Origin: Thermodesulfovibrionales bacterium
GTDB taxonomy: Bacteria; Nitrospirota; Thermodesulfovibrionia; Thermodesulfovibrionales; SM23-35
Assembly (NCBI GenBank): GCA_022865525.1
Contig: JALHSV010000264.1
Span: 1-52,111, forward strand
DNA: 52,111 nt
Direction of reading: 5' to 3'
Each line of letters opens with the position of its first letter. Position 1 is the stretch's first letter. A program made the translations under genes and the position numbers. Below are positions 3,255 through 52,111 of the stretch, one piece after another. The notes beneath the pieces were generated by a model. That model was not told the origin of the DNA and ran no database searches. It worked only from the letters and a program-made list of their open reading frames with translations.

Positions 3255-3256
3255 AG

Positions 3257-4392: not shown

Positions 4393-4432
4393 AACTAAAG
4401 TAGGTAACAGTTTAAGACGAAAGGAGAGTATT

Positions 4433-4711: not shown

Positions 4712-4743
4712 CCCAGCGAGGGGAAAAAGAGAGGAAACGAATT

Positions 4744-5070: not shown

Positions 5071-5072
5071 AA

Positions 5073-5291
5073 ATGGACAGAACAGAACATCTACAGTGGT
5101 GCAAGGACAGAGCGTTAGAATATGTAAAGATGGGCGACATGGCACAAGCAGTAGCTTCTATGACATCAGACCTATCAAAACATCCCGAAACAGCAAGCCA
5201 TCCAGCAATACATCTGGGAACAATGCTACTGTTTGGTGGCCACATGAACAACGCCGCCGAAACAGAAAAATGGATAAAAGGTTTTAATTGA
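5073..5291 (+). CDS. hypothetical protein (72 aa)
   Basis: SD GGAGAAATAGAA before the ATG. Follows directly after the previous stop. Confidence 0.6.
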   Translation: MDRTEHLQWCKDRALEYVKMGDMAQAVASMTSDLSKHPETASHPAIHLGTMLLFGGHMNNAAETEKWIKGFN

Positions 5292-5308
5292 GAAATAGAG
5301 TACGGACG

Positions 5309-5558
5309 GGCGGTGGTCGATAGGCAGGGATAGGCCAAACTGAAGATTAACCTCATCGAAAATGAGACTTTGATTGACGTAAAGTAAACAGTGAATTACG
5401 GATTTCCACCGCCTTTATATAAACAAACGGGCGGGAAGGCATTTATGAAACTATAACCTAAAAGCATCAAGGATGCAGAAAATGCTTACACAATCCCTCG
5501 ATTTTCAGGCAGAGTTAATTGGGGAAGGTTAGAAACGTAAAAACGTGGCTTTCCCGCC
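5309..5558 (+). ncRNA. two-domain structured leader / ncRNA candidate
   Basis: Long-range helix GGCGGTGG (5309-5316) / CCACCGCC (5406-5413). Second helix GGCGGGAAGGC (5430-5440) / GCTTTCCCGCC (5548-5558; 11 bp, one G-U). Lies in a 288-nt ORF-free gap ending at the SD of the 5580 gene. Confidence 0.35.
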
Positions 5559-5579
5559 TATTTATAGGAGAATAAGATT

Positions 5580-5915
5580 ATGAGTACATTTCCAAAATGC
5601 AAACACGGCATTGGTGACGCAAACAACCTCACCGAATGTAAGGAATGTCAATTAGATGACCTGCAAGCCGAACTCGATAAGCTCAAGGCAAGCCACGACA
5701 GGCAAGAGGAAGCATTGCGAAAGATTGATAATTGGGCCAAAGCATATCCGCTCGAAGTATTCCCAGAGCCGGATTTTAAGAAAGTAGCAGAAGTGTTAAA
5801 GGCGGCAGGGATCAGTTTAGACGCTGTTTCTGCAAGCAATATGCGGCATGTTATCAAGGGTGTAAAAGGTATTGCAGAGCAAGCCCTCAAAGAGGCTGAG
5901 AAGATAGGAGAATGA
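5580..5915 (+). CDS. small coiled-coil protein, paralog family member 1
   Basis: 111 aa. Shares the box LDKLKASHDR with the next ORF (near-identical DNA). SD TAGGAGAA. Confidence 0.65.
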   Translation: MSTFPKCKHGIGDANNLTECKECQLDDLQAELDKLKASHDRQEEALRKIDNWAKAYPLEVFPEPDFKKVAEVLKAAGISLDAVSASNMRHVIKGVKGIAEQALKEAEKIGE

Positions 5916-5919
5916 GATT

Positions 5920-6183
5920 ATGGACATGAATGAAGTAATGCAAGTATTAGACAAAGGACTCAGATACGACAAGCTGTGGGCTGCGTATTGTAAGTTGGAA
6001 AGCTCTGAACAAGCACGGTTACAACGAACCGATTACGACAAGCTCAAGGCAAGCCACGACAGGCTGGTGGAAACATTAGGCAGTAAGTTTATCAAGACCT
6101 TCGTACCTTACGACAAAGATTCTGAATGTTACCGAGCATATAACGAACTCAAGCAAGCCCTTGCAGAAGCGGAGAAGATATGA
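5920..6183 (+). CDS. small coiled-coil protein, paralog family member 2
   Basis: 87 aa. YDKLKASHDR box (shared with 5580 ORF) and FIKTFVPYDKDSECYRAYNELKQAL box (shared with 6592 ORF). Confidence 0.65.
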   Translation: MDMNEVMQVLDKGLRYDKLWAAYCKLESSEQARLQRTDYDKLKASHDRLVETLGSKFIKTFVPYDKDSECYRAYNELKQALAEAEKI

Positions 6184-6590
6184 AAACAACAACCAGTGTA
6201 ATAATAGTCGGCTTATTCTATGTTTTGTTGGTGTGGATTTACGGAGGATGGGTCAGGGATGACCACCACGCCTCGATAAAGGCCCCCCAGGCGGCCCAGG
6301 ATGGACGAAGTGCCGTATATAAGGTTACGGCCTATTGCCCCTGTGAGAAGTGCTGTGGGGCGTTTGCGGACGGAATAACGGCCTCTGGCGCACTGGCTAA
6401 AGGAAAACTAATCGCCGCCCCCAAGTCGATACCTTTTGGAACATGGATTGAAATTGAAGGCTACGGATGGGCAGAGGTACTCGACCGGGGCGGCAGTATT
6501 AAGGGAAGGCGACTTGATTTACTGTTCCCGACACATCAGGAAGCCCTGAACTGGGGCGTTAAATATCTGGAAATCAATTTAGGAGACTGA
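6180..6590 (+). CDS. membrane-anchored 3D-domain (MltA/RlpA-like double-psi barrel) protein, candidate murein hydrolase
   Basis: 136 aa. N-terminal TM SVIIVGLFYVLLVWIYGGW. VTAYCPCEKCCG...GITASG...VLDRGGSIKG.RLDL matches the 3D-domain pattern. Confidence 0.7.
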   Translation: MKTTTSVIIVGLFYVLLVWIYGGWVRDDHHASIKAPQAAQDGRSAVYKVTAYCPCEKCCGAFADGITASGALAKGKLIAAPKSIPFGTWIEIEGYGWAEVLDRGGSIKGRRLDLLFPTHQEALNWGVKYLEINLGD

Positions 6591-6591
6591 A

Positions 6592-6873
6592 ATGGAACAT
6601 ACAAAGTTAAAAATTAGAGACGAAATAGAACCTACCAGTTTTTATGCTATTGTTGACGAGGAAACAGATGGAAAGAAGATTTACGAAGAAGTGTCTTCTC
6701 TCTTAATGGCCCTCCGCCTCGTCAAGTGCTGGAACGGCTGGGACGAGCTTGTGGAGGCAGGGAACGAGTTTATCAAGACGTTTACCCCTCACGATATAAG
6801 GTCTGAATGTTTCCGAGCATATACTAAATTATTAAAGCTTCTCGCCGCAGAGAGTAAAGAGGTGAAAGAATGA
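6592..6873 (+). CDS. small protein, paralog family member 3
   Basis: 93 aa. FIKTFTPHDIRSECFRAYTKLLKLL box shared with the 5920 ORF. Confidence 0.65.
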   Translation: MEHTKLKIRDEIEPTSFYAIVDEETDGKKIYEEVSSLLMALRLVKCWNGWDELVEAGNEFIKTFTPHDIRSECFRAYTKLLKLLAAESKEVKE

Positions 6874-12289: not shown

Positions 12290-12735
12290 ACCTACAGGAC
12301 TTTGACATATTCTGGGAAGCCTATCCTTGCAAGAAGGGTAAATCTGAAGCCGAAAGGCACTGGCTAAGGATTAAACCTGTTTTATCCGAGGTAATGGCCG
12401 CCTTAGAGCTTCAGAAGCAGGAAAAGGTATGGCTCGAACAGCACAAGAAATTTGTCTCTGAATGGCCTCACGGCTCGACGTGGGTAAATCAGAAGCGATG
12501 GCGGGACGGATACAACAAAGACTTTGAGGACTATCTGAAAAACAAACTCTTACAACCGGCCAGAGAACAGAGGGAACGGGAAAAATACGAAATGCGTATT
12601 CGGGATGAACACCAAGAATACCTTGAAGGCAAATCAATCCAAGCCTTGCAGGACTTAAGGAAAGATGGTGGCCATCTCGCTGGTCTTTGCGGGTGGCTGA
12701 TAGACGAAGTAATAGAGGCCAAAACAGGCAAATGA
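12268..12735 (+). CDS. hypothetical protein (155 aa)
   Basis: The F.IFWEAYPCKKGK..AE..W pattern recurs in phage replication-region proteins. Function unknown. Confidence 0.55.
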   Translation: MAFANIMNLQDFDIFWEAYPCKKGKSEAERHWLRIKPVLSEVMAALELQKQEKVWLEQHKKFVSEWPHGSTWVNQKRWRDGYNKDFEDYLKNKLLQPAREQREREKYEMRIRDEHQEYLEGKSIQALQDLRKDGGHLAGLCGWLIDEVIEAKTGK

Positions 12736-12748
12736 AAGGATTGGGATT

Positions 12749-12904
12749 ATGACGGGCGAAAAATGCACATGGAAATTTAACGAGAACGCCTTTTATTGGG
12801 AAACCGCTTGCGGCAACGCTAATCAATTCATGGATGAGGGGCCAAAGGAAAACCATTATATATACTGCCCGTATTGCGGCAAGAAAATCGAGGAGACAAA
12901 ATGA
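12749..12904 (+). CDS. small zinc-ribbon protein (51 aa; not in the ORF track)
   Basis: MTGEKCTWKF...YCPYCGKKIEETK. Ends in the GGAGACAAAATGA junction. Confidence 0.5.
   Translation: MTGEKCTWKFNENAFYWETACGNANQFMDEGPKENHYIYCPYCGKKIEETK
12892..12904 (+). repeat. GGAGACAAAATGA junction, copy 1
   Basis: Identical 13-mer at 13107-13119 and 13310-13322. Each encodes ...ETK, a stop, and the SD and ATG of the next gene. Confidence 0.85.
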
Positions 12905-13119
12905 AAGAAAGAGATGCCAAAAAATTGAAAGTGGGCCAAACAGTCACCCATGACAGGTACGGCGAGTGCAAAGTTAAAGAAGTCATGATGTCTTTCGGTG
13001 TGGTAATCTCACCCACAACAGACGAAGGCAAGGCTATTTTGAAGATAGATTCCAATACTGAGATACTTGATTTCTTAGAAGATTCACCACGTCATTTAAC
13101 TGTTAAGGAGACAAAATGA
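12901..13119 (+). CDS. hypothetical protein (72 aa)
   Basis: ATG at 12901 with SD GGAGA. The track ORF starting at 12874 lacks an SD. Confidence 0.55.
   Translation: MKERDAKKLKVGQTVTHDRYGECKVKEVMMSFGVVISPTTDEGKAILKIDSNTEILDFLEDSPRHLTVKETK
13107..13119 (+). repeat. GGAGACAAAATGA junction, copy 2
   Basis: See 12892-12904. Confidence 0.85.
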
Positions 13120-13322
13120 CAGCAAAGACGCGAATAATTGAATTGCATAGATATTATAGCAAAGGACGATGTAAATTGTCAGGGAAATATTGGGCTACGG
13201 AATTTTGTTGGGATGGCTTTAAGCGGCTCAATCCTGCAATCTGCAAAGGCCTGCGTAAAGGCAAGAAGCGCATGCTCAAGCGTACACAACTTAAAAATGG
13301 ATTCAAACTGGAGACAAAATGA
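13116..13322 (+). CDS. basic small protein (68 aa)
   Basis: ATGA coupling at both ends. Confidence 0.55.
   Translation: MTAKTRIIELHRYYSKGRCKLSGKYWATEFCWDGFKRLNPAICKGLRKGKKRMLKRTQLKNGFKLETK
13310..13322 (+). repeat. GGAGACAAAATGA junction, copy 3
   Basis: See 12892-12904. Confidence 0.85.
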
Positions 13323-13882
13323 CCGAAAAAGAAAAACAGACTAAAGCAGGATTAAATAATGCGTTAAAGGCTCATTATGATAATGACTGGGCGGGAACTT
13401 TCTGGGCTATAAGTAAGGCGATAACCCTGCTCGAAGAGCCTGCCGAGAAGCCGTTTGAGCCAGAGCGCAATGAAGAATTTAAGCGAAAAGAGGGAAAACA
13501 TAAATTGGTTTACGATAAAAAGCTACGAACAATAGTAGGTTACTGTAAAACACACAAGGTATATTATCAACCAAGCGGTAATTGTTATAAGTGTTGTCCT
13601 GAGCCTGCCGAGAAGCCGGAGAGCGAGTCAAACACAGATTTTATAGATGGAGCAAGAGCACTATTACGGCAAGGAGCAGATGACCGACAATGGGCGTTTG
13701 CAACACTTCTTAGAAAAGCCTGCGACCGCCTCGAAGAACTCAAAGACAGAGAAGAACAAATTCTGGCTAAAGCGTCAGCCGCCACCAAGCGGGCAGAGCA
13801 GGCAGAGGCCAAACTCGAAGGGTTATTGAAAGAGAACTCAGAACTGCGTAAAAGGCAACGACAACCTGACCCATATTCCTGA
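13319..13882 (+). CDS. hypothetical coiled-coil protein (187 aa)
   Basis: Last gene of the + strand block before the convergent terminator region. Confidence 0.6.
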   Translation: MTEKEKQTKAGLNNALKAHYDNDWAGTFWAISKAITLLEEPAEKPFEPERNEEFKRKEGKHKLVYDKKLRTIVGYCKTHKVYYQPSGNCYKCCPEPAEKPESESNTDFIDGARALLRQGADDRQWAFATLLRKACDRLEELKDREEQILAKASAATKRAEQAEAKLEGLLKENSELRKRQRQPDPYS

Positions 13883-31768: not shown

Positions 31769-32464
31769 ATGACAGGCGCAGAACTAACAGATGAAGTTAG
31801 AGAGATAGTAGGCCGGCCGGGTGCTGCGGCTTCGGGTGTTATTACCGATGCCCGCGTGACCAGATGGCTTAATGATGCACAGGCGGCAATAGTAGAGGGG
31901 TGCGTAGGTCTTCATGGAATGTCCTTTAAGAATACGGACTCTCTGGATACTACCGCCGTACTCAAGTATGCGTTAGCCGATATAACCGTAGGCGATGTTT
32001 CCGTCTCGGACGCCGTATGCAGGATATACGACGTATGGTACCTGAACGGTCTTGAGACGAAAAAGCTGAACTTCCTGACTACCGACGAATTTGACGAGTT
32101 GTATCCCGACCCTACCCACAGTGATATTCCATTAACTATACCGTCTGTGTGGACGAGAAGGGGCGCTTATATAGAGATAATGCCGATAGGCGTTACCGCT
32201 TACTATGATAAGGACTTGCGATTCGACGGAGACAGGTACGCGCGTGATTTGACGACTAACGACGCTACCGTTTCGGATATTACCGGGGCCGACGAAGGTC
32301 TGATTGCTTACGGTGCATGGAAGGCGTGGGGTGCTATCGGAGGCCCGAAAGCTACCCTGGAAGAGTTGAAATGGAAGAGAAACTGGGAAGACTGGTTAGA
32401 TGACTTCCGTTCACAGAATGACGACTTGGATGAATGGGATGGTAAAATGTTCGGAGATATTTAG
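31769..32464 (+). CDS. head-tail adaptor / tail-tubular-A-like protein
   Basis: 231 aa. N-terminal LTDEVREIVGR......ITDARVTRWLNDAQAAI resembles head-tail connector families. Position is equivalent to T7 gp11. Confidence 0.4.
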   Translation: MTGAELTDEVREIVGRPGAAASGVITDARVTRWLNDAQAAIVEGCVGLHGMSFKNTDSLDTTAVLKYALADITVGDVSVSDAVCRIYDVWYLNGLETKKLNFLTTDEFDELYPDPTHSDIPLTIPSVWTRRGAYIEIMPIGVTAYYDKDLRFDGDRYARDLTTNDATVSDITGADEGLIAYGAWKAWGAIGGPKATLEELKWKRNWEDWLDDFRSQNDDLDEWDGKMFGDI

Positions 32465-32478
32465 AGAAGGGAAAAACA

Positions 32479-32865
32479 ATGGTCAGTGAGAAGGTCGGGT
32501 CTTTTATAAGTAAAGATGGGTGTAAATATAGTATAGATTGTCCCTTGTTGCCTCGTAATGGCGTTCCATACTGTTGCCGTCATTGTCATAAAAGCCGTAA
32601 GGATTACGTGACAGACTCCAACAGGCATTTATGGACTGATAAGGGCGGCTTTCATTCTCCGGATAACGGGTGCAGACTTCCTCGCGAAGATATGCCCAAA
32701 GAGTGTCTGGACTATGACTGCCGCAATTATTGGTTCTTTCTGGTATCGGCGTATTTTGATGGCAAGTGGATGTCTAATAGCGGCGCTCCGTTAAAAAGTG
32801 AAAATGAAGTTATAACAGTAGTAAAGTCTGTTAATGCAACTTTGTGGATGAATAGAAATGGTTAA
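32479..32865 (+). CDS. Cys/His-rich protein (128 aa), first ORF of the sugar island
   Basis: CKYSIDCP...CCRHCH...C...C..DC. No family recognised. Confidence 0.55.
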   Translation: MVSEKVGSFISKDGCKYSIDCPLLPRNGVPYCCRHCHKSRKDYVTDSNRHLWTDKGGFHSPDNGCRLPREDMPKECLDYDCRNYWFFLVSAYFDGKWMSNSGAPLKSENEVITVVKSVNATLWMNRNG

Positions 32866-33688
32866 AATTATAGCCGAAATGAGTGCTTCTCATCAGCAGT
32901 CTTTTCAAAAGGCTCTTGCGATAGTATGGGCGGCGGCCGAAGCAGGTGCCGACGCCCTTAAGGTACAAATGTTCACACCCGACGACATGACAGTCAATAG
33001 CAACGATAAAATGTATAGGATTGGAACTGGTCAGTGGTCGGGTATGACTTTGTACGAACTCTATCAGAAGGCTTGTATGCCCTACGATTGGATTCCCGCT
33101 ATAAAAGACCATGCGGAATCACGTGGAATGGAATTTATCGCTACGGTCTATCATCCGAGGACCGTGCCGATAGCCGTGGAAATGGGTATAAAGTCTCTGA
33201 AGATTTCGTCTTTTGAAATAAATTTTGAAAAATTATTAATTAGTGTTGACAAAACAAATTTACCCGTTATAGTTTCGACAGGTTCGGCTACTGAAAAGGA
33301 AATAAGTTATGTAGTTAATCTTTTGAGAAGGAACTTAACTTTGCTGAAATGCACATCACAATATCCAGCCCCTGCGGAATCGCTTAATATCAGAACTATT
33401 CCCGACATGTGCGAACGGTGGGGAGTTCCCGTAGGTCTTTCAGACCATTCTTTAGGCATGATAGGTGCTATAAGTGCGGTATCTTCAGGTGCATCTGCAA
33501 TCGAGAAGCACATTACGATTGACGGCAAAGGTCTGGACAAAGACTTTGCTATCCTTCCCGACAGGTTCAATATGATGGTACAGCTTGTTCGCGAGACCGA
33601 AAAGGCTTTAGGTGAAGTGGAGTATGGTGGTAAGAAGACTTATCATCGTGAACTCGTAGGTGGACAAATGCAGAGGACGGTAAAATGA
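32858..33688 (+). CDS. neuB: nonulosonic acid synthase (NeuB/PseI/LegI family), short form
   Basis: IIAEMSASHQQSFQKAL..AAEAGADALKVQMF, LKISS, VIVSTG, LLKCTSQYPAP and GLSDHS match the NeuB TIM-barrel domain. 276 aa, with no room for the C-terminal SAF domain. Confidence 0.85.
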   Translation: MVKIIAEMSASHQQSFQKALAIVWAAAEAGADALKVQMFTPDDMTVNSNDKMYRIGTGQWSGMTLYELYQKACMPYDWIPAIKDHAESRGMEFIATVYHPRTVPIAVEMGIKSLKISSFEINFEKLLISVDKTNLPVIVSTGSATEKEISYVVNLLRRNLTLLKCTSQYPAPAESLNIRTIPDMCERWGVPVGLSDHSLGMIGAISAVSSGASAIEKHITIDGKGLDKDFAILPDRFNMMVQLVRETEKALGEVEYGGKKTYHRELVGGQMQRTVK

Positions 33689-33690
33689 AA
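33648..33690 (+). repeat. junction repeat (..GQMQRTVK stop/ATGA), copy 1
   Basis: The core ggacaaatgcagaggacggtaaaatgaaa is identical to 34061-34089 at 27 of 29 positions. A weaker match extends 14 nt upstream. Confidence 0.85.
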
Positions 33691-33885
33691 TGTTTTCAAT
33701 GTAATAATATTATCGAAGGAATCTACAAAAATAATATGCAGATGCCGTTTGCAGAAAAAGAAGGGGATATGTTTAGGATTCTCGTAATATTTCCGGAAAA
33801 TATTCCGTTATGTACGAAATGTAAATGTGAAATTCTTATTAAAGGTTTCGAGAAAACACTCAGTGAAACGCAGAGAATGTCTTAA
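33685..33885 (+). CDS. small zinc-ribbon protein (66 aa)
   Basis: CFQCNN...CTKCKC. ATGA coupling to neuB. Confidence 0.55.
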   Translation: MKCFQCNNIIEGIYKNNMQMPFAEKEGDMFRILVIFPENIPLCTKCKCEILIKGFEKTLSETQRMS

Positions 33886-33922
33886 ACTATTATGTATATC
33901 ACCTATTGTGCCAAGTGTGTTA

Positions 33923-34087
33923 ATGGCTAAAGAAGTAGTGCCTTTTATAGACCCGCAACCATATTTAATTGATGAGTGGCATTGGCATGGGATAGGTTAT
34001 ATGGTGCCAGAAGATTATACCAAGGGTGGTTTTAGTTGGGTTCAATGTGAACTTGTGAACGGTCAAATGCAGAGAACGGTAAAATGA
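33923..34087 (+). CDS. small protein ending ELVNGQMQRTVK (copy of the NeuB C-terminus)
   Basis: Track ORF 33827-34087. First non-overlapping ATG is at 33923 and the start is uncertain. Confidence 0.45.
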   Translation: MAKEVVPFIDPQPYLIDEWHWHGIGYMVPEDYTKGGFSWVQCELVNGQMQRTVK

Positions 34088-34089
34088 AA
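34047..34089 (+). repeat. junction repeat, copy 2
   Basis: See 33648-33690. Confidence 0.85.
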
Positions 34090-34353
34090 CGAAAGACCGG
34101 AAAATTATATAAATACGTATTTCTATCCGTATTATTTACTTCTGTTTTTGTTTTATCCTGGTATATTATCCTGGTAAGATATTCGACTTGTAACCCGCTA
34201 TTGTTGATGGTAGCTATTCTCTGTGTTCTCATTTTACCCTTATTTATTATAGCGTGTTTATGTTCGTTATATGATTATTTAATATATTTCATTAAGAATT
34301 CCAGCCGTAAGTGTCAAATAGACCGAATAGAAAGTATATTAAAAGGACGGTAA
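34084..34353 (+). CDS. small membrane protein (2 TM)
   Basis: 89 aa with hydrophobic segments VFLSVLFTSVFVLSWYIILV and LLLMVAILCVLILPLFIIACL. Confidence 0.55.
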   Translation: MKRKTGKLYKYVFLSVLFTSVFVLSWYIILVRYSTCNPLLLMVAILCVLILPLFIIACLCSLYDYLIYFIKNSSRKCQIDRIESILKGR

Positions 34354-34359
34354 AATGAA
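34344..34359 (+). repeat. junction repeat, partial copy 3 (aggacggtaaaatgaa)
   Basis: 16-nt identity with the end of copy 1. Confidence 0.7.
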
Positions 34360-34456
34360 TGGATGGATAATGTTAGGAATAGGTTTTGTTTGTGGATTAT
34401 CTACTCGATATGTATGTCGTTTTTATTGGATGCTATTTACCCATAATGTTGAATAA
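34355..34456 (+). CDS. possible 33-aa membrane peptide
   Basis: MNGWIMLGIGFVCGLSTRYVCRFYWMLFTHNVE. Short, so uncertain. Confidence 0.3.
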   Translation: MNGWIMLGIGFVCGLSTRYVCRFYWMLFTHNVE

Positions 34457-35288
34457 CAAGACAATACTTATCTCAGGCGGAAGTGGTTCTTTGGGCCACG
34501 CTCTTGTCGAGAGGATATGCACAGAGTATTCGCCTAAAAAACTATTCATCTTCTCTCGTGACGAATACAAGCAATCTCTTATGCAGAAGCAATACGACTA
34601 CGACTGCCTGAGATATTTTATAGGTGACGTAAGGGACGTAAGAAGGCTCAAGCAGGTATGCCGGGGCGTTGACATAGTAATACACGCCGCAGCACTTAAA
34701 AGGGTAGATACGCTCGAATACAATCCCACAGAGGCCATCAGGACCAACGTGGACGGCACTATGAATGTAATTGAGACTTGTATCGAATGTGACGTAAAGA
34801 GTGCTGTTTTCATATCGACGGACAAGGCTTACGCCCCCGTGAATCTCTATGGCGCTACTAAGTTGGCAGCCGAGAAGATATGGCTGGCGGCAAACTCGTT
34901 CAATAAGACCGTCTTTACATTGGTAAGGTACGGTAACGTCATAAACTCAAGAGGTTCGGTAATCGAGTTATTCCTGAAGTTGAAAGAAAAGGGTATAAAG
35001 GAATTTCCGATAACCGATAAGAATATGAGTCGCTTCTGGATAACTCTGGACGAAGCGGTTGACCTTATAATAGTAGCTCTGGAACATCGAGGCGATTCGG
35101 ATATATATATCCCGAAAGTGCCTTCGATGTTGATAACCGAAGTGGCAAGGGCGATAGACCCCGACTGTACGTTTAATGAAATAGGAATACGTCCGGGCGA
35201 GAAGTTACACGAAACCTTATGTGACGGTTACTCCTCGAATACCAACGAGGACTGGATGACGCCGGAAGAGTTACTGGAGAAATTATGA
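34446..35288 (+). CDS. pseB: UDP-GlcNAc 4,6-dehydratase (PseB/FlaA1/CapD family)
   Basis: KTILISGGSGSLGHAL, FIGDVRD, IHAAALKRV..EYNPTEAIRTNVDGTMNV and ISTDKAYAPVNLYGATKLAAEK. ATG 34446 chosen (the track starts at TTG 34386). Confidence 0.85.
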   Translation: MLNNKTILISGGSGSLGHALVERICTEYSPKKLFIFSRDEYKQSLMQKQYDYDCLRYFIGDVRDVRRLKQVCRGVDIVIHAAALKRVDTLEYNPTEAIRTNVDGTMNVIETCIECDVKSAVFISTDKAYAPVNLYGATKLAAEKIWLAANSFNKTVFTLVRYGNVINSRGSVIELFLKLKEKGIKEFPITDKNMSRFWITLDEAVDLIIVALEHRGDSDIYIPKVPSMLITEVARAIDPDCTFNEIGIRPGEKLHETLCDGYSSNTNEDWMTPEELLEKL

Positions 35289-35494
35289 AAGTTACAATAC
35301 CAACAACAATTATTGAACTTACAGATGACGAAAGGCTCATACTCGAAAAAGCGTTATGTATTGCCGAAGAGTTAGGAAACGATGCAGTGCGGAAAGAATG
35401 CGTGAGTAGCCTTATGATTCGTGCAGGTTTTGATAATGCAAGAGAAGTTGGTAAAATGAGAGATTTAGTTTCTGAATTGAGGGAGAAATTATGA
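35285..35494 (+). CDS. hypothetical protein (69 aa)
   Basis: ATGA coupling at both ends. Confidence 0.55.
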   Translation: MKVTIPTTIIELTDDERLILEKALCIAEELGNDAVRKECVSSLMIRAGFDNAREVGKMRDLVSELREKL

Positions 35495-35634
35495 AACGCG
35501 TACTTGCTCTTATTATTACAAGCCCGGTATGGCTTACGGCGGTAGTTCTGATGAGTTTTGTTTGTATTCCCGTGTGGATTGCTCTTGGTATTGTCCGATT
35601 AATAATGTATGGTTTCAATGGAGAGTGGGAATAA
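35491..35634 (+). CDS. small membrane protein (47 aa; not in the ORF track)
   Basis: MKRVLALIITSPVWLTAVVLMSFVCIPVWIALGIVRLIMYGFNGEWE. Confidence 0.45.
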   Translation: MKRVLALIITSPVWLTAVVLMSFVCIPVWIALGIVRLIMYGFNGEWE

Positions 35635-35639: not shown

Positions 35640-36266
35640 ATGATATTTGACAGACTCGCAATAGGCACGGCTAACTGGGGCAGGGAATACAACGGGGCGA
35701 AAGTCTCCGAAGATGACCAGAAGCGTATTCTCGACTACTGTCAATGCTCAGGTATAGACATGATAGATACGGCCACGGCTTATGGTTGGGACTGGACTAA
35801 AGTTAGTTCTTACTTCAATATTATAGTGAAGGTTAAGAGTAATGATAAAGTTGATAATGTAATAAAGATGGCACATAGCCTTGAAGATTACAAAGCCATA
35901 GACCCGGTTTGTAATGGTTGTTCTATATATTCGCCTGAAGAACGCATGTATGTTTACGGTGGTTCTGTGATACAAATACCTTATTCTATATATGACAGAC
36001 GATTTGAACCTTATTTGGAATCAATGCGATATGAATGTAATAATACTATCCACGTCCGTTCTATCTTCTTACGGGGCAAAATCTTAAAGGAATTTTCACC
36101 TCAGCAGTGTATATCCTTTTGCCTGATGAATCCTAATATAGACCGGGTAATTATAGGTGCGGACTCTTACAAACAGTTCAAAGAGAACCTGCGGCCTTTC
36201 CACGATATGAACGTAGCCGAGAAGCACGATATAAACTTATTAGATTGCCGAAAATGGGAGACATAA
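35640..36266 (+). CDS. aldo/keto reductase-like protein (short)
   Basis: LAIGTANWGREY......ILDYCQCSGIDMIDTATAYG is the AKR N-terminal signature. 208 aa from ATG 35640. Confidence 0.55.
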   Translation: MIFDRLAIGTANWGREYNGAKVSEDDQKRILDYCQCSGIDMIDTATAYGWDWTKVSSYFNIIVKVKSNDKVDNVIKMAHSLEDYKAIDPVCNGCSIYSPEERMYVYGGSVIQIPYSIYDRRFEPYLESMRYECNNTIHVRSIFLRGKILKEFSPQQCISFCLMNPNIDRVIIGADSYKQFKENLRPFHDMNVAEKHDINLLDCRKWET

Positions 36267-37531
36267 TGAATTGGCTTAAAACATGCGAGTTAATACCTGA
36301 CGGCGTTCAGACGTTATCCAAGATGCCGGAGAAACACATCAACGGCGTATATCCTAAGTACATCACACACGGAAAGGGTGCTTATGTTTACGGTGACGAT
36401 GGCAAACGGTACATAGATTACCCCTGTGGGCTGGGTGCCATCCTTTTAGGTTACGCAAACGACAGGGTTAATCAGGCCGTTAAGGAACAACTTAACAGGG
36501 GTTCTATTTTTTCACTGCCTAACTATCTGGAAACAGAACTCGCCGAGCGGATAGTTGACCTTATCCCAAGCGCTGAGAGAGTGCGCTTCTTAAAAACTGG
36601 CTCTGAGGCAACGTCCGCTGCGGTAAAGATTGCCCGTGCCTATACCGGTAAGGAAGGAATAATCTGTATAGGTTATCACGGCTGGCACGACTGGTACTGT
36701 TCTACGACCTCTAAGAAGGCCGGAGTACCCGAACAGCCGGTAGTCCAGTGTAAATATAACAGTATCACCGAGATAATCGACGCCTTTGAATTTAATGAGC
36801 AGGAGGACATGACCGGTATTGCGGCGGTAATAATGGAGCCGTACATCCTTGACGAACCCAACTTCGGGTACCTGACGAAGATACGTAAACTTTGTGATAG
36901 GTACAATGCAGTTTTGATATTCGATGAAGTAGTTACGGGATTCAGGACTACCGGTTACTCTGCACAGAAGATGTTCGGGATAATGCCGGATTTGACCTGT
37001 CTGGGTAAGGCGATGGCTAATGGCCTTCCGATTTCAGTAGTATGCGGTAAAAAGGAACTGATGGACGTTCTAAGGGGCGACTGTTTCGTTTCATCTACTT
37101 TCGGCGGCGAACTGCTCTCGATAACAGCGGCACTGGAAGTCTTGAAGATTCTCGATGAAGAGAATATTATCAGCAGGATTTGGGACAACGGCAACCTGTT
37201 CAAGGAAGGGTTCAGGCAGATAGTGGATTCCTGCAAGATGAATGACCATATAGGAATAAGGGGTTATCCGCCGAGGACATTCTTCACGTTCTCATCCGAA
37301 GTACACAAGAGCCTGTTCTGGCAGGAATGCCTTAGTAAGGGCGTCCTGTTCGGTTATGCCCAGTTTATCAGTGCCTCGCACGGCAGGGACGAAATAGACC
37401 AGACCCTGCTTGCGATGAAGCATGGTGTCCAGATGGTATCGAAGTATTTCGATAATCCGCTGGCGGCATTGAGGGGCGAGGTTGCACAGGAAACATTCAG
37501 AACACCGGGATTAGAGAAGGGCAAAAAATGA
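36266..37531 (+). CDS. class-III PLP aminotransferase (glutamate-1-semialdehyde aminomutase-like)
   Basis: GKGAYVYGDDGKRYIDY, FLKTGSEATSAAVKIARAYTG, IMEP, IFDEVVTGFR and LGKAMANGLP (PLP Lys). Start is at 36266 or 36254. Confidence 0.85.
   Translation: MNWLKTCELIPDGVQTLSKMPEKHINGVYPKYITHGKGAYVYGDDGKRYIDYPCGLGAILLGYANDRVNQAVKEQLNRGSIFSLPNYLETELAERIVDLIPSAERVRFLKTGSEATSAAVKIARAYTGKEGIICIGYHGWHDWYCSTTSKKAGVPEQPVVQCKYNSITEIIDAFEFNEQEDMTGIAAVIMEPYILDEPNFGYLTKIRKLCDRYNAVLIFDEVVTGFRTTGYSAQKMFGIMPDLTCLGKAMANGLPISVVCGKKELMDVLRGDCFVSSTFGGELLSITAALEVLKILDEENIISRIWDNGNLFKEGFRQIVDSCKMNDHIGIRGYPPRTFFTFSSEVHKSLFWQECLSKGVLFGYAQFISASHGRDEIDQTLLAMKHGVQMVSKYFDNPLAALRGEVAQETFRTPGLEKGKK
37513..37531 (+). repeat. 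junction repeat agagaagggcaaaaaatga (..EKGKK stop/ATGA), copy 1
   Basis: The same 19-mer occurs at 37683-37701 and 37868-37886. Confidence 0.9.
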
Positions 37532-37701
37532 GCATAAAAGGAGAAAAAAAGAGCGAAGATAAATGTGGTGTTTGCGGTAAAGTTATAGATTGGGATTTAT
37601 GTGACCCAATAATTAGGTGTGGCGAGGGAGATGTAATATTATCTTGTGGCCACATGGGATTGGAAAGCGGAAATGCGGATGAAGAGAAGGGCAAAAAATG
37701 A
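37528..37701 (+). CDS. small zinc-ribbon protein (57 aa; not in the ORF track)
   Basis: MSIKGEKKSEDKCGVCGK...RCGEGDVILSCGH...DEEKGKK. Bracketed by junction repeats. Confidence 0.5.
   Translation: MSIKGEKKSEDKCGVCGKVIDWDLCDPIIRCGEGDVILSCGHMGLESGNADEEKGKK
37683..37701 (+). repeat. junction repeat, copy 2
   Basis: See 37513-37531. Confidence 0.9.
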
Positions 37702-37886
37702 AGCTATTAAAAAAGTCAATCGATAAATATAAATGTAAATGGATTGAGCCTTGGGAAGGCGCACCTTGGGAGTACCAAGAATGTCGTTGTCCCGAGATAT
37801 TTGATGTGTCTTGTGTTCATCAAGCAAACGCAGGCCCAGACATTGGTAAGGATTATACCTGTTTCGAAGAGAAGGGCAAAAAATGA
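37698..37886 (+). CDS. small Cys-rich protein (62 aa) ending EEKGKK
   Basis: Bracketed by junction repeats. Confidence 0.55.
   Translation: MKLLKKSIDKYKCKWIEPWEGAPWEYQECRCPEIFDVSCVHQANAGPDIGKDYTCFEEKGKK
37868..37886 (+). repeat. junction repeat, copy 3
   Basis: See 37513-37531. Confidence 0.9.
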
Positions 37887-38440
37887 AACTTGAAGCACTA
37901 ACTTTAGACCAATGCGAGCAAGTCCGTATCTGGCGTAACGCCGAGATGGAATGCTGGCGAACGCCGTTCATGCTGACTAAACAGATGCAGGATGAGTTCT
38001 ATGAAGGGTGTTGCAACAGGGAATCGCCGCATAGATACTTTGCATTAGTAAGGACGACAGACGACCCAATTCAAGGCGTAGTGCCTGAATCAGGATTTAT
38101 CGGCATGGGTGGCATCACCTATATCCAGTGGGAGAACCGTATAGGCGAGATAACGCTTATCATCAATCCTGTCGAACGCGGGGACGGCTTAGGTGAGAAG
38201 GCGGTTGACCTACTCTTAGACCATGCTTTTAATCACTTGAATTTACAGACGGTATTCGGAGAATGTTATCATTGCAACGATGCTTGGGAGTTTTGGGGAG
38301 ATATAACAGATAAATATGATAGCCCTAATACAATACAAACGCTGTTGCCGAAACGAAAATATTGGAACGGAGACTACTGGGATAGTACGTATTTCTCAAT
38401 AGACAAAGATGACTTCAACAAAATCCATAATAGTAAGTAA
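37883..38440 (+). CDS. GNAT N-acetyltransferase (PseH-like)
   Basis: LTLDQCEQVRIWRNAE at the N-terminus and ...RGDGLGEKAVDLLLDHAF.HLNLQTV in the acetyl-CoA-binding region. Confidence 0.7.
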   Translation: MKLEALTLDQCEQVRIWRNAEMECWRTPFMLTKQMQDEFYEGCCNRESPHRYFALVRTTDDPIQGVVPESGFIGMGGITYIQWENRIGEITLIINPVERGDGLGEKAVDLLLDHAFNHLNLQTVFGECYHCNDAWEFWGDITDKYDSPNTIQTLLPKRKYWNGDYWDSTYFSIDKDDFNKIHNSK

Positions 38441-38957
38441 CCGATTGGTTAATCCCGACGACGAAGCCGATATAACCGGTAAGCTCGACTTTACCGCCGA
38501 AAGGCTGAAGGTCTATGGCAGGCTGGACTATATCTTCGTACCGTTCTGGAGTTGGTACATACCGGCTGATATTTACAAGAAGTGGAACGTAGTAATATTC
38601 CACATGACCGCACTTCCGTTCGGCAGGGGCGGCAGTCCGTTACAGAACTTAATCGTAAGGGGCTTTACGAAGACGAAGATAAGCGCCTTGAAATGCACGA
38701 AAGGCATAGACGCCGGGCCGTTATACTGTCAATCACCGCTCAGTCTCGAAGGTACTGCGGACAACATATATGACCGGGCCGACGATATTATAAGAAAAGC
38801 AATGATACCATTTATCAAGGTGCAGCAGCCCGAACCGAGTCCTCAGAGGGGCAAGGTCGTTTACTTCGATAAGTGGGTATGTACGAAGAAAGACATATTA
38901 AGGTGTATTAACTCAGATTATGAATGGAAAGATACTGACAATATCCGCACATCCTGA
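38409..38957 (+). CDS. formyltransferase-family protein
   Basis: FHMTALPFGRGGSPLQNLIVRG...KCTKGIDAGPL matches the H.SLLP..RG...D.G core of Formyl_trans_N. Confidence 0.6.
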   Translation: MTSTKSIIVSNRLVNPDDEADITGKLDFTAERLKVYGRLDYIFVPFWSWYIPADIYKKWNVVIFHMTALPFGRGGSPLQNLIVRGFTKTKISALKCTKGIDAGPLYCQSPLSLEGTADNIYDRADDIIRKAMIPFIKVQQPEPSPQRGKVVYFDKWVCTKKDILRCINSDYEWKDTDNIRTS

Positions 38958-39492
38958 CGATTGGGAATTGGGCTGTGCAGGAACGATAGAGCGACTGAAG
39001 CGTGAAGGGTGTGAATGTAATCATGCCGTATTAGGCTTAGGGCGTGGCGATGAAACTGATAATAAGTTCGATTCCTTACCTTTGTTGCATTGGGTAGGGC
39101 AGGTTGAACTGCATATAGCAATTCACAGGCCCGACATCATCCTCACTCACTACGCACACGACCTGAACATAGACCATAGGATAACTTATCAGGCCGTTAT
39201 TACGGCGGCACGACCGCTTCCCGACTATTGCGTCAGGGAGATATACTCATTCGAGGTCTTGAGTAGTACCGAGTGGTCGGACATACCGTTTAGGCCGGAT
39301 ATGTTCGTAGCCTTGACTTTGGATGATATGGAAACAAAAGAAAAGATATTGAGAGACGGATATGATAGCGAGATGAGAGACATGCCTCATGCCCGAAGTT
39401 ATCAGGCAGTTGAGTCTCTTGCAATGGTCAGAGGTATGACGGTAGGCGAGAAATACGCCGAAGCGTTTAAGACCGTGAGAAGGATAATATGA
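38920..39492 (+). CDS. PIG-L/LmbE family de-N-acetylase
   Basis: ILTISAHPDDWELGCAGTI and a downstream HxDH (NIDHR). Confidence 0.8.
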   Translation: MNGKILTISAHPDDWELGCAGTIERLKREGCECNHAVLGLGRGDETDNKFDSLPLLHWVGQVELHIAIHRPDIILTHYAHDLNIDHRITYQAVITAARPLPDYCVREIYSFEVLSSTEWSDIPFRPDMFVALTLDDMETKEKILRDGYDSEMRDMPHARSYQAVESLAMVRGMTVGEKYAEAFKTVRRII

Positions 39493-39737
39493 AAGAAGAC
39501 GAAAAACAGTTTCTTCGGATGATTTATGAAAAATGTGTACCTTTTGGTAATAAAAATTATTCTGTTAGAGATGTTATAAATAACCCTAAATGCCCCATAG
39601 TAAGTTACAAGAGAGCTTGGTATGTATTGGGTAAATGGTCAAGTGCTAAAATGGGGTTATATGATTATGGCGTTACTATTGATTTAGGTTGGTTGACTGA
39701 AAAAGGGATAGATTTTGCTAAAAATAATGAAACTTGA
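39489..39737 (+). CDS. hypothetical protein (82 aa)
   Basis: ATGA coupling. Confidence 0.55.
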   Translation: MKEDEKQFLRMIYEKCVPFGNKNYSVRDVINNPKCPIVSYKRAWYVLGKWSSAKMGLYDYGVTIDLGWLTEKGIDFAKNNET

Positions 39738-40506
39738 AGAACTAACAGCCTTATACAGTCCACTGGACATCGAATACGCCCAGGTAATGAGTGGGCCTTA
39801 CGAAGACCTGTCATTCCACGACGGCGATACCAAAGTCGTAGCGGGACTGAAAGACGGCAGGATAAGTGGTTTCTGGCGTCCTGTAGTGGCTGTGGGCGAC
39901 GATAAGGACTTGAAACTACATATTGAGCGTTTGTACGATATATGCCCTAATATCTATTATATGGACTTCCTGATAGACGGCAGGTTATCGGTGATAAGCC
40001 AGTTCTTATTGGAACGGGGCCATAAGGCACGGCCTTATTTCACGCAGATAATAGATTTGACAAAGACCGAAGAAGAATTGCACGCTGATTTGAGGAAGTC
40101 ATATAAGAGTTTAGTGAATAAAGGATTTGGCGGCATTGATACTGCATTAGGTGTTCTTAGAAAATTACACAAGGACACAAGAAGTAATGAAACTTGGCAT
40201 ATACAGTCGAAGATAATCGGAATGCAACAGGCGTTTATCTCAGATGACGAAGGAAAGTCGGCATGTCTTATATATCACAATAGATATACTGCATATTATT
40301 TTAGCGGTGTCTCTGAGGATGGCGTTAATTCTCATCCCTGTTTATGGATGGCCATATTGCAAGCAAAAGCATTAGGCTGTAAGACTTTTGAAATGGGCGA
40401 GCAGGTCTTTGACGGCGACCCCAAGTTAGTAAATATATCCAAATTCAAACGTGGATTTGGAGGAAAAACCGTAACTCGAATAATATTAGAGAAGGATACT
40501 AAATGA
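39727..40506 (+). CDS. FemAB/BioF2-like acyl(aminoacyl)transferase-fold protein
   Basis: IDLTKTEEELHADLRKSYKSLVNKG and the C-terminal ISKFKRGFGG are typical of the FemAB / Acetyltransf_6 family. By eye only. Confidence 0.5.
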   Translation: MKLEELTALYSPLDIEYAQVMSGPYEDLSFHDGDTKVVAGLKDGRISGFWRPVVAVGDDKDLKLHIERLYDICPNIYYMDFLIDGRLSVISQFLLERGHKARPYFTQIIDLTKTEEELHADLRKSYKSLVNKGFGGIDTALGVLRKLHKDTRSNETWHIQSKIIGMQQAFISDDEGKSACLIYHNRYTAYYFSGVSEDGVNSHPCLWMAILQAKALGCKTFEMGEQVFDGDPKLVNISKFKRGFGGKTVTRIILEKDTK

Positions 40507-41852
40507 AGAAAATACTCATCCTGACAGCATCACCCCGCAGAGATTTACTCATTGACGAGCAGATAGCCAAGAAACTCAAAGAGCTGGGTAACGAGACCAA
40601 GATAGCCCCCTGCCTTCGAGAGGGCAGGGATACGGTATTGGAGTACCAGCCTGACGTCGTGGTAGTTCCTCCTGTACGCAATATGTATTCGAGGGACTTC
40701 TGTGAGGACATCAAGCGATTCGGTTGCGGTTTGGTTTCAAGGCATACCGAGCCGTCCTGCGACTGGCCCGACTATAAAGCGATGAACCAGAAGCAGCAGA
40801 GTGAAATATGCGGTCTTATCCAATACTACGTCGATAGTGAACTGGTCTGGTCTGAAGATGAGGCACAAATACTGAATCGCCGAGGTGCAAAGTTCAAAGC
40901 TGTTAGTGTGGGGGCCGTCGGCGTAGATAAGTACCTTAACCCGGAATATAAGAAAAGGTATAAGGACAAGGCTAAATTCAAGAAAAAGTACAAGTTCACT
41001 AATAATAAGACCATTCTTATCCAGTCGCCGTGGGGGTTTGCAGACCATTCACCCGACCTGCGAATAGAGGAGGTTGACGAGTTCGTTAAGGACAACAAAG
41101 GCCGGGACAGGCACTTGGATATGATAGAGGCACTGCACAAGGAATTGCCGGATTATAATATCATCGTAACTACCCATCCGGGCGTAGTTACGAAGCCCTA
41201 CATTCAAAGACTCGGCAAGTTGGGGATACCGCTGGATACGGTATCGACCTCGCTTGAGTTAATGCTGAACTCTGATATTCTTATCCACGCCGGTTCGACA
41301 ATGGCTATCGGGGCGCACTTCCTGAAGATGCCCGCTTTCCAGTTCGGGGACGTTAATCTGAAGGATTCTACGAACTGGTGGCACCAATCGGGCAAGATAA
41401 TGGCAGAGATGTCGTTGAACTGCAAGAACCCAGAGATGCTGGCAAAGCTTATAAAAAAGGCAGAACCGAAGTCCAATATCAATAAGGAAGCCCTGGAGAA
41501 GCTCAGGGAAGGCCGTTACGGAATAATGGACGGTAAGGCCACCGACCGTGCGGCGGAGATAATCAATAAAATCGAAGGCAAGTTCAAGTTCGCCTGGCCG
41601 AGGTCAACTCACGACTATTCTCAGTTAACTATATTACAACACCCATCCAAGGCAATAGCAGATGCTAATTGTGGTATCTGTAAAGAGGCGTTCGGTATAA
41701 TGCGCCCCGAATATAAGGAAATGATTCGAGTAAACGTAGCAAACGTAGTTAAGGAAGCAGAGTTAGTAAATAAGATAATGCTGATATTTGAGCCGGTACG
41801 AGGCACTTACTGCCCGCACTGCGGTTCAAGATTTATGCCGGTAATGCCATGA
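40503..41852 (+). CDS. GT-B-like glycosyltransferase/hydrolase (PseG- or CMP-sugar-transferase-like) with C-terminal zinc ribbon
   Basis: 449 aa. Rossmann-like MKKILILTASP.., IIVTTHPG, and SDILIHAGSTMAIGAHFLKMPAF resembling the GT28/MurG-PseG C-terminal motif. CGICK...CPHCGSRF at the C-terminus. Confidence 0.5.
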   Translation: MKKILILTASPRRDLLIDEQIAKKLKELGNETKIAPCLREGRDTVLEYQPDVVVVPPVRNMYSRDFCEDIKRFGCGLVSRHTEPSCDWPDYKAMNQKQQSEICGLIQYYVDSELVWSEDEAQILNRRGAKFKAVSVGAVGVDKYLNPEYKKRYKDKAKFKKKYKFTNNKTILIQSPWGFADHSPDLRIEEVDEFVKDNKGRDRHLDMIEALHKELPDYNIIVTTHPGVVTKPYIQRLGKLGIPLDTVSTSLELMLNSDILIHAGSTMAIGAHFLKMPAFQFGDVNLKDSTNWWHQSGKIMAEMSLNCKNPEMLAKLIKKAEPKSNINKEALEKLREGRYGIMDGKATDRAAEIINKIEGKFKFAWPRSTHDYSQLTILQHPSKAIADANCGICKEAFGIMRPEYKEMIRVNVANVVKEAELVNKIMLIFEPVRGTYCPHCGSRFMPVMP

Positions 41853-42508
41853 TTTCAGCGATAATTCAAGCAAGGTTAGGTAGTACGAGACTGCCCCGCA
41901 AGGTACTCTTAGAGATACCCAAAGGCAGTGGCGCTACCTGTCTGGACAGAGTTATCGAAGCGGTCAAGAAGAGTATGATAGACCGTATCTCGCTTACCAC
42001 ACCCGATAAGGAACTCTTCGAAATGTTATGGGGAAGGTGGCCCTTAAGGGTGCATCATTACGCCGGTAAAGAGAGGAACGTAATTGCCGAGTTCTTCAGT
42101 ATAGCGATAGAAGGTGATACTATAGTCAGGATAACCGCCGACTGCCCGATGCTGGACTCCGACCAGATAGATAAGTGCATAGACGAGTTTTTAGACGGCG
42201 ATTACGATTTAGTTTACAATACGGACGAGTCTATTACAATGGACGGCGACGGTACCGACGTTGAGGTATTTTCGTACAAGGCCCTGAGAGAGGTTTACTT
42301 GAATGCGACGGGAAACGAGAAAGAGCATGTGACTTTATGGATGAGAAGGAACTTGAAATGTAAATATGTACCTGTGACCTTTAACGGTTGCAGTTTGAAC
42401 AATATCGAAGATTACGAGCGTATTTGCAAGCTCTGGACTGAGAAGGAAGAAAGCGATAAAATATGTCAGTCCACCCAGACGGCTCCGGCACAGGCTGGAC
42501 AAATGTAG
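41849..42508 (+). CDS. acylneuraminate/SpsF-type cytidylyltransferase (CMP-nonulosonate synthetase-like)
   Basis: MISAIIQARLGSTRLPRKVL and RITADCPMLD match CTP_transf_3. Confidence 0.8.
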   Translation: MISAIIQARLGSTRLPRKVLLEIPKGSGATCLDRVIEAVKKSMIDRISLTTPDKELFEMLWGRWPLRVHHYAGKERNVIAEFFSIAIEGDTIVRITADCPMLDSDQIDKCIDEFLDGDYDLVYNTDESITMDGDGTDVEVFSYKALREVYLNATGNEKEHVTLWMRRNLKCKYVPVTFNGCSLNNIEDYERICKLWTEKEESDKICQSTQTAPAQAGQM

Positions 42509-51949: not shown

Positions 51950-52093
51950 ATGAAACACAAAATAATGCAGAGGATATTCTGGTATCTCGCCCGAAAATTG
52001 GAATATGGCGTTGTACTAAAAGTAGGGAAACACTTTCATTACACCGAGATTAAAGAATATATGCCGGATACGATGATTGTATATTTTGGATAG
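51950..52093 (+). CDS. early small protein (47 aa)
   Basis: ATG at 51950 preceded by AAGGGGAAAGAA. The same GGGGAAAGAAATGAA context recurs at 123-137. Confidence 0.55.
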   Translation: MKHKIMQRIFWYLARKLEYGVVLKVGKHFHYTEIKEYMPDTMIVYFG

Positions 52094-52111
52094 GGGAAAG
52101 AAATGAATGAA
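51971..52111. repeat. terminal overlap copy 2 (identical to 1-141)
   Basis: Direct comparison with bases 1-141. Confidence 0.95.

Follow-up and report, generated by a model that had tools for sequence, protein, structure and literature searches.

The window analysed here is the whole of contig JALHSV010000264.1, 52,111 nucleotides long, which forms one entire contig (C82) of a 2.99-Mb metagenome bin labelled as a Thermodesulfovibrionales bacterium (GCA_022865525.1). Because its two ends overlap exactly over 141 bp (1-141 = 51971-52111), the window is a complete phage genome of ~51,970 bp, circular or terminally redundant. The genome is of the podovirus type and carries every gene on the plus strand. 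Between its SU10-type head-tail adaptor (31769-32464), preceded by terminase, portal and major head protein genes, and its tail genes (from 42463) lies a ~10-kb operon of putative nonulosonic acid (NulO) genes, hereafter the island. In order, the island comprises a Cys-rich open reading frame (ORF), a short NeuB/PseI-like gene, a PseB-like gene, six genes flagged in an earlier sequence-only reading, a gene for a 449-residue glycosyltransferase-B (GT-B) protein and a CTP_transf_3 cytidylyltransferase gene (Table 1). All six flagged genes were indeed found, on the plus strand at 35640-40506: an aldo/keto reductase (AKR), a class-III aminotransferase (here AT3), a GNAT, a formyltransferase-like protein, a PIG-L de-N-acetylase and a FemAB-like protein. 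Gene junctions overlap (TAATG, ATGA), consistent with a single translationally coupled operon; the AKR stop and the AT3 start share such a TAATG overlap, indicative of coupled translation of the two.

Table 1 Genes and small ORFs of the island, numbered by position in the window
Feature	Position	Strand	Evidence or remark
Cys-rich ORF, 128 aa, head of island	32479-32865	+	no family match; 35-61% identity in relatives
NeuB/PseI-like nonulosonate synthase, short (276 aa), without C-terminal SAF domain	32858-33688	+	PF03102 3.8e-65
PseB-like UDP-GlcNAc 4,6-dehydratase, 280 aa from ATG at 34446	34446-35288	+	PF02719 7.9e-87
Short AKR, 208 aa from ATG at 35640	35640-36266	+	PF00248 29.6 bits
AT3, class-III (GSAM-fold) aminotransferase, 421 aa	36266-37531	+	PF00202 5.3e-57
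Two small CxxC ORFs (57 and 62 aa) between AT3 and GNAT	37528-37886	+	each flanked by junction repeat GAAGAGAAGGGCAAAAAATGA, repeat family D2
GNAT, RimL/PseH-like Acetyltransf_3 type	37883-38440	+	PF13302 5.5e-12
1ZGH-type formyltransferase-fold protein, 182 aa, truncated	38409-38957	+	PF00551 20.4 bits (cut-off 26.1)
PIG-L/LmbE-type de-N-acetylase	38920-39492	+	PF02585 5.3e-13, 50 bits
FemAB-like tandem-GNAT protein, 259 aa	39727-40506	+	AlphaFold (AF2) model and Foldseek; weak TIGR04421
GT-B/TagB-like protein, 449 aa, HP motif, C-terminal 4-Cys ribbon	40503-41852	+	NF046086 7.5e-27
CTP_transf_3 cytidylyltransferase, AT3-linked type	41849-42508	+	PF02348 1.6e-15

The best-scoring families of the PseB-like and PseI-like proteins are PseB and PseI of pseudaminic acid (Pse) synthesis. 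The PseB-like protein reached 379.6 bits against TIGR03589 (cut-off 407.75), aligned to profile positions 1-269 of 324, and the PseI-like protein 267.4 bits against TIGR03586 (cut-off 340.25) versus 189 bits against NeuB, which is also below its own cut-off; both proteins are C-terminally short. The cytidylyltransferase gave no match to the PseF model TIGR03584, only weak KdsB-type matches, and the GNAT, at 19.5 bits against TIGR03585 (cut-off 93.1), falls well short of the PseH equivalog. Like the PseB-C-H-G-I-F pathway of Campylobacter and Helicobacter, the island combines a PseB-like and a PseI-like enzyme with a GNAT and a cytidylyltransferase. In contrast to that pathway, it lacks PseC and PseG, its GNAT and cytidylyltransferase stay below the PseH and PseF models, and five extra enzymes are present. 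Neither PF01041 nor TIGR03588, the DegT/PseC models, matched anything on the window contig, and tblastn with three DegT queries detected none in the window. With PseC (C4 amination) and PseG (UDP release) not encoded, these functions would be supplied by the host, by an unrecognised phage protein or, in the case of amination only, by AT3. The gap at the PseG-type hydrolase had gone unremarked in the sequence-only reading. Among the candidates for a missing function is the Cys-rich ORF that opens the island.

We then characterized the AKR and AT3. The AKR matched PF00248 at 29.6 bits (cut-off 24) through its N-terminus alone, and a profile built from it with nine relatives matched the AKR structure 1ynp at 7e-12. 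Within the tetrad Asp-Tyr-Lys-His, D44, Y49 and H80 are invariant and K65 is kept in at least 90% of the 10 relatives. A typical AKR has ~290-330 residues, as compared with 208 here. AT3 belongs to class III, scoring 193.8 bits against PF00202 (cut-off 30.5). Its nearest solved structures are glutamate-1-semialdehyde aminomutase (GSAM) enzymes (3bs8, 5e-52), and the Lys of its motif CLGKAMANG aligns with the GSAM lysine that binds pyridoxal phosphate. AT3 stays far below the HemL equivalog models, with 253.7 bits against TIGR00713 (cut-off 527.3) and 321.5 bits against PRK06209 (cut-off 486), and its genomic setting is a sugar operon, not haem synthesis. The pair resembles the aminoglycoside dehydrogenases coupled to GSAM-fold aminotransferases (GenB-type C-6', PDB 7LLD), where the class-III enzyme aminates a sugar carbonyl made by its partner. 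The similarity is distant (7lld, among the nearest structures, at 1.6e-44) and concerns another substrate class, and the partner in the phage is an AKR.

An oxidoreductase accompanies AT3 far beyond this phage. About 595 bacterial loci hold an AT3 relative, of which 80 were fetched, with AT3 detected in 78. An oxidoreductase, nearly always an SDR, lay within 6 kb of AT3 in 67 of the 80, and a cytidylyltransferase within 6 kb in 68 of the 78. The partner family varies with the setting: AKR in Pse-type loci, GFO/IDH/MocA in two phage loci (L096 and L107), SDR in most bacterial loci. One AKR::AT3 fusion protein exists (P0016), and cytidylyltransferase::AT3 fusions of ~680 residues occur in L101-103, L110, L059 and L097, some of these contigs being labelled as giant-virus metagenome-assembled genomes (MAGs); L110 carries a stand-alone cytidylyltransferase besides its fusion. 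Most of the oxidoreductase-paired bacterial AT3 loci correspond to one cluster type, with a HAD protein, a short NeuB, a cytidylyltransferase and a TIGR04396-like GT-B. This six-gene cluster, which consists of a TIGR04396-like GT-B, cytidylyltransferase, AT3, PtmA-like SDR, Kdn-9-P-phosphatase-like HAD and short NeuB, is widespread in Ignavibacteriota, Bacteroidota and other phyla (L118, L119 and ~60 further bacterial loci among L009-L088). It appears to encode a derivative of a Kdn-type sugar that is aminated and CMP-activated.

The AT3 tree groups the window with 12 viral relatives in a single well-supported clade (SH-aLRT 99), all members of which have PseB and none DegT. Beyond this phage clade, a DegT-type aminotransferase lies near AT3 in every PseB-linked locus that was fetched, namely in three bacterial MAGs and on seven contigs of viruses or giant viruses. 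AKR and AT3 form an accessory pair in PseC-bearing clusters in L017, L075, L081, L101-104, L108 and L110. In the 188-kb phage contig L104, whose DegT scores above the cut-off as PseC with 463 bits, the order is PseB, PseC, AKR, cytidylyltransferase, AT3, PseG-like, 1ZGH-type formyltransferase-like, PIG-L, a second formyltransferase-like gene and NeuB. This arrangement has been published for the group I polar-flagellin islands of Aeromonas (96 strains), which read pseB-pseC-[aldo/keto reductase]-pseF-[class III aminotransferase]-pseG, optionally pseH and a deacetylase, and finally pseI; here an 'alpha/keto reductase' plus a 'class III aminotransferase' flank pseF, pseC is found in all islands and pseG in most (PMC7874193). 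The lipopolysaccharide locus of Legionella pneumophila Sg6/12 has the same pair together with DegT and PseG (PMC3694923). The phage island shares with both the same accessory pair, an AKR and a class-III aminotransferase that interleave with the cytidylyltransferase of a Pse cluster, and an optional deacetylase. It differs from them, which have PseC, usually PseG, and Maf transferases, in having neither PseC nor PseG, in its FemAB-like and TagB-like proteins, and in that its enzymes are all shortened. The pairing of AT3 with an AKR is not peculiar to this phage; it is a recurrent accessory of PseC-bearing Pse clusters in Aeromonas, Legionella and other loci.

Judged from these neighbourhoods, the AKR and AT3 together look like a conserved hydroxyl-to-amine tailoring unit. 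We take an extra tailoring step as the default role of AT3, because AT3 travels with a dehydrogenase and would most simply aminate the carbonyl made by it, whereas the PseB product is already a ketone; a takeover of C4 amination is possible. The phage AT3s retain all family-invariant motifs and carry seven clade-specific substitutions, none within conserved motifs. As read from the alignment, these would neither prove nor exclude a change of substrate.

Next to this unit lie the PIG-L and formyltransferase-like genes. The PIG-L protein scored 50 bits against PF02585 (cut-off 28.2) and keeps the AHPDD and LNIDH motifs, with H11, D13, D14, H77 and H86 invariant among relatives. The family profile of the formyltransferase-like protein matched PDB 1ZGH at 7e-73 and PseJ at 6e-15. 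PseJ (PDB 6CI2) replaces PseH and leads to Pse5Ac7Fo (PMC11040635). Like PseJ and the uncharacterised 1ZGH 'Met-tRNA formyltransferase', the phage protein has the formyltransferase fold and keeps the LPxGRGGSP motif along with two residues of the catalytic triad, His and Asp; unlike PseJ, it belongs to the 1ZGH subfamily, is short at both termini and reads I-F-H in place of N-x-H. The catalytic Asn is replaced by Ile or Val in the window's clade, in the L104 paralogue and in 1ZGH, and is also lost in L095. Being common to L095, the paralogue in L104 and 1ZGH, a crystallised protein, the loss predates the phage clade. In relatives, the PIG-L and formyltransferase-like genes are either jointly present or jointly absent, indicative of one optional module. 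To judge by gene content, this co-occurrence is compatible with de-N-acetylation followed by re-acylation, and to that extent fits the scheme of the sequence-only reading; the formyl option of that scheme is left in doubt by the lost Asn.

The FemAB-like protein was assigned chiefly through its predicted fold. By sequence, it gave 39.5 bits against TIGR04421 (cut-off 250) and no match to PF02388. Its AF2 model (pLDDT 95) found Sba18/Sbb17 as the best Foldseek matches (6e-11, TM 0.67-0.70), followed by FemX, FemA and MprF, and the top 28 matches were all aminoacyl-tRNA-dependent enzymes or uncharacterised homologues of such enzymes. The protein has the tandem-GNAT fold and, in the form FKRGFGG, the C-terminal motif FKxGFGG. 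It shares both with Sba18/Sbb17, FemX/FemA and the MprF aminoacyl-phosphatidylglycerol synthase domain (TM 0.6-0.7), and Sba18/Sbb17 carry out tRNA-dependent acylation of an amine on the amino-sugar compound streptothrisamine. In contrast to the Fem proteins, it has no coiled-coil insert in the predicted secondary structure and only 259 residues, versus 335-400 in FemX/FemA; its identity to the aminoacyl-tRNA-dependent matches is 11-17%. A fold search of BFVD found no close viral counterpart (best TM-score 0.51). On the strength of the model, the protein is probably an aminoacyl-tRNA-dependent aminoacyl transferase, in agreement with the acyl/aminoacyl transferase named earlier. Homologues of this type number about 185 proteins, all of the phage group, and no FemAB-like gene was found in the 80 bacterial AT3 loci or in L101-L110.

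The 449-residue protein downstream has a GT-B fold in its AF2 model (pLDDT 88) and matched NF046086, the family of BFO_1060, at 94.4 bits (7.5e-27, cut-off 200) over nearly its full length. Its HP motif, H225-P226, is invariant in 44 sequences of the family. TagB-like orthologs of BFO_1060 in Tannerella forsythia are needed for adding a Pse or legionaminic acid (Leg) derivative to the O-glycan, as demonstrated by knock-out and complementation (PMC5420450). The phage protein is like the T. forsythia transferases Tanf_01245, TFUB4_00887 and BFO_1060 (PMC5420450) in its TagB/GT-B type and HP motif; it differs from them in its score of less than half the family cut-off and its 4-Cys ribbon, and some of its homologues are fused to AAA_33. 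We also considered the protein as a member of PseG and rejected this: TIGR03590 did not match, hhalign gave 81% probability over the C-terminal Rossmann half only, Foldseek placed 2-epimerases and TagF above PseG, and the best family was the T. forsythia NulO transferase. The rejection covers membership of PseG; a hydrolase function of the protein is not excluded by it. On family and motif, a CMP-nonulosonate transferase is probable, and more likely than a hydrolase. TagB-like homologues are at times fused to or preceded by an AAA_33-type kinase (P0173, P0193, P0198, P0206 and P0237; L117 at 12591-13046), an association that hints at a phosphorylation step tied to transfer.

Taken together, the flagged genes may be the tailoring half of a phage-borne Pse-type NulO island, and the island a stripped-down phage form of a widespread cluster variant, PseB-PseC-AKR-cytidylyltransferase-AT3-PseG with or without 1ZGH-type, PIG-L and other genes. 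We hold this joint reading tentatively, at somewhat less than even confidence, and infer its pathway steps as follows. PseB, NeuB and the cytidylyltransferase would supply the backbone. The AKR would oxidise a hydroxyl and AT3 transaminate the resulting carbonyl, giving an additional amino group, probably at a late stage on or next to the CMP-activated sugar. The FemAB-like protein would transfer an amino acid from aminoacyl-tRNA to a free sugar amine, and the GNAT acetylate an amine of the sugar or of the newly attached amino acid. Where present, PIG-L would strip the GlcNAc-derived N-acetyl, and the 1ZGH-type protein put a formyl or a related small acyl residue back on the same nitrogen. Finally, the TagB-like GT-B would pass the sugar from CMP to an acceptor. 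Instead of Pse5Ac7Ac, the product would be a Pse-type sugar whose N-substituents are non-standard and in part aminoacyl. Nonulosonic acids with N-formyl, N-alanyl and N-glyceroyl groups are known. From the gene content, a non-standard sugar is likely, because the core set, even without the PIG-L and formyltransferase-like genes, has two N-acyl transferases, one beyond the need of Pse5Ac7Ac; the flagged set as a whole has more N-acyl-modifying enzymes than plain Pse5Ac7Ac requires.

Several observations weigh against this reading. AKRs are usually reductases, while an oxidation is assigned to the AKR here. The formyltransferase-like protein lacks ~25 N-terminal and ~45 C-terminal residues relative to homologues, and formyl transfer by an enzyme without the catalytic Asn is uncertain from its sequence. 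No DegT gene was found in five related viral records, and TIGR03590 matched none of the island proteins and nothing in the MAG. With neither DegT nor PseG, a host-independent pathway is therefore impossible under the tailoring reading unless AT3 or another protein fills in. The bin, for its part, lacks a PseC equivalog, a PseG and any strong NeuB, which disfavours the idea of supply by the host. This absence is limited as evidence, since the bin may not be the host: a comparison of the window with the bin contigs found no spacer-like matches. Some homologues carry Planctomycetota labels, for the host no more than a hint.

Given these gaps, we considered whether the island is self-sufficient, with AT3 having displaced PseC to convert the UDP-4-keto-6-deoxy sugar into the 4-amino sugar and the GNAT and/or FemAB-like protein acylating that amine. 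AT3 is the sole aminotransferase in a complete genome, its clade (SH-aLRT 99) always has PseB and never DegT, it sits directly downstream of PseB, the usual position of PseC, in L096 and L107, and the binned MAG has no PseC equivalog. AcbV, which we take to be a class-III aminotransferase, provides a precedent for a non-DegT 4-aminotransferase acting on an NDP-4-keto-6-deoxy sugar. Yet the oxidoreductase partner of AT3 is kept even in the phages, though the PseB product is already a ketone; the active-site motifs are identical to those of AT3s coexisting with PseC; the fusions with the cytidylyltransferase indicate a late step; and with PseG absent too, the island would not be self-sufficient anyway. 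We consider this displacement possible but doubtful, and much the same holds for the milder proposal that the AKR and AT3 have taken over the PseC reaction in this lineage in addition to tailoring. Of the claim that a class-III enzyme stands here instead of a DegT/PseC-type one, the absence of DegT from the genome and from five relatives is borne out. The replacement of PseC by AT3 is on balance only partly supported, AT3 being found elsewhere beside DegT, paired with an oxidoreductase and unchanged in its motifs. Unlikely, too, is the full scheme in which this lineage makes a Pse-type sugar without PseC or PseG by two steps that lack precedent, AT3 aminating the nucleotide sugar (alone or besides tailoring) and the FemX-like enzyme using host aminoacyl-tRNA on a sugar nitrogen, after which the TagB-like protein, encoded amid the virion genes, would attach the sugar, possibly to the virion. 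If true, a nonulosonic acid would here be aminoacylated in a tRNA-dependent way for the first time.

A different order of steps would have AT3 and the AKR act after the FemAB-like protein, turning an N-aminoacyl into a 2-oxoacyl and then an N-hydroxyacyl group, so that seryl might become glyceroyl, for instance, or alanyl become lactoyl. It would assign the AKR its normal activity, carbonyl reduction, fits the coupling and occasional fusion of the AKR and AT3, and has natural counterparts in hydroxyacyl N-substituents on Pse, such as Pse5Am7Gra (glyceroyl) in T. forsythia. It is nonetheless highly improbable, as the AKR/AT3 pair is widespread in clusters without a FemAB-like gene (none in the 80 bacterial loci or L101-L110) and the FemAB-like homologues are limited to the phage group. 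We also examined whether the additional genes are passengers in decay, with ordinary Pse5Ac7Ac as the product. The shortened proteins are suggestive of decay (an AKR of 208 and a formyltransferase-like protein of 182 residues, a ~38-residue deletion in PIG-L, NeuB without SAF, PseB without its C-terminus), as is the formyltransferase-like protein without its catalytic Asn. In contrast, the ratio of nonsynonymous to synonymous substitution (dN/dS) against the nearest contigs was 0.058 for AT3 (against a 92%-identical contig), 0.18 for the GNAT and 0.10 for the FemAB-like protein, and these three genes are under purifying selection; for the AKR and GT-B, synonymous sites were saturated. Furthermore, catalytic residues are kept among relatives of 45-80% identity, the same shortened forms occur in many phages, and the Asn loss is older than the phage clade. 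Related phage contigs of 45-52 kb carry the same island at the same position, from the SU10-type adaptor to the tail genes. Close homologues number well above a hundred for each of AT3, the FemAB-like protein and the GT-B, many of them on contigs of 40-70 kb, and the FemAB-like and GT-B families are essentially confined to this phage group. The flagged genes are thus not remnants, a possibility that the sequence-only reading had itself raised, because their catalytic motifs are kept, dN/dS is low and the island recurs in relatives; that the product is nevertheless plain Pse5Ac7Ac with decaying passengers seems to us scarcely credible.

The gene pattern of an AKR with a class-III aminotransferase has already been published for bacteria, without a function. 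Particular to this phage is the version without PseC and PseG plus FemX-like and TagB-like enzymes, in a complete genome. A literature search found no functional characterisation of the AKR/AT3 pair and, among the papers listed, no link of FemAB-type enzymes to nonulosonic acids, and a 2026 paper on Clostridium flagellar Pse mentions none of these accessory genes. The N-acyl groups of Pse and Leg are highly diverse and most of the enzymes that install them are unknown, PseJ and PseA being among the few identified (PMC11040635). Under the tailoring reading, the island would offer compact, co-linear, minimal forms of three uncharacterised units: the AKR with AT3, PIG-L with the 1ZGH-type protein, and the FemX-like transferase. 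Pairs of the first kind reach across the 96 Aeromonas strains and Legionella and, with an SDR or GFO-type enzyme instead of the AKR, no fewer than 65 of the 80 bacterial loci that were fetched. Assigning these units would close gaps in nonulosonic acid biosynthesis and supply tools for chemo-enzymatic synthesis.

Additionally, a sister group of SU10-like phages (L095, L096, L107) carries an island of different composition, flanked by the major capsid protein and adaptor genes. Jointly, these three loci hold NeuB, a methyltransferase, formyltransferase-like, PIG-L, a GT1-family transferase, AKR or GFO, AT3, cytidylyltransferase and PseB, and no DegT, GNAT, FemAB-like or TagB-like gene. In a phage collection, the nucleotide sequence of the island found no match and its proteins just distant host-type HemL genes. 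In the rest of the bin, similarity to the window was restricted to the second phage contig, C391 (42 kb), which lacks NeuB and hence a sugar island. In the early region, window positions 2893-6852 and 13310-13441 share with it patches of 92-100% identity, up to 196 bp long; the two phages look like mosaic relatives present in one sample.

Short junction cassettes recur at gene boundaries and flank every small ORF of the island (33643-34094, 34342-34365, 35276-35496 and 37511-37890). One type repeats, over 48 nt, the 3' end of NeuB with the next start; the others are AGAGGACGGTAAAATGAAA in four copies, GAAGAGAAGGGCAAAAAATGA in three and GGAGAAATTATGAAA in two. Because these junction cassettes are repeated, three consecutive proteins end in EKGKK and two in GQMQRTVK. 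In L120, the nearest relative, AT3 and the GNAT abut directly and the two CxxC ORFs are not there. Judging from these repeats, the small ORFs look like cassettes inserted by recombination at repeated junctions.

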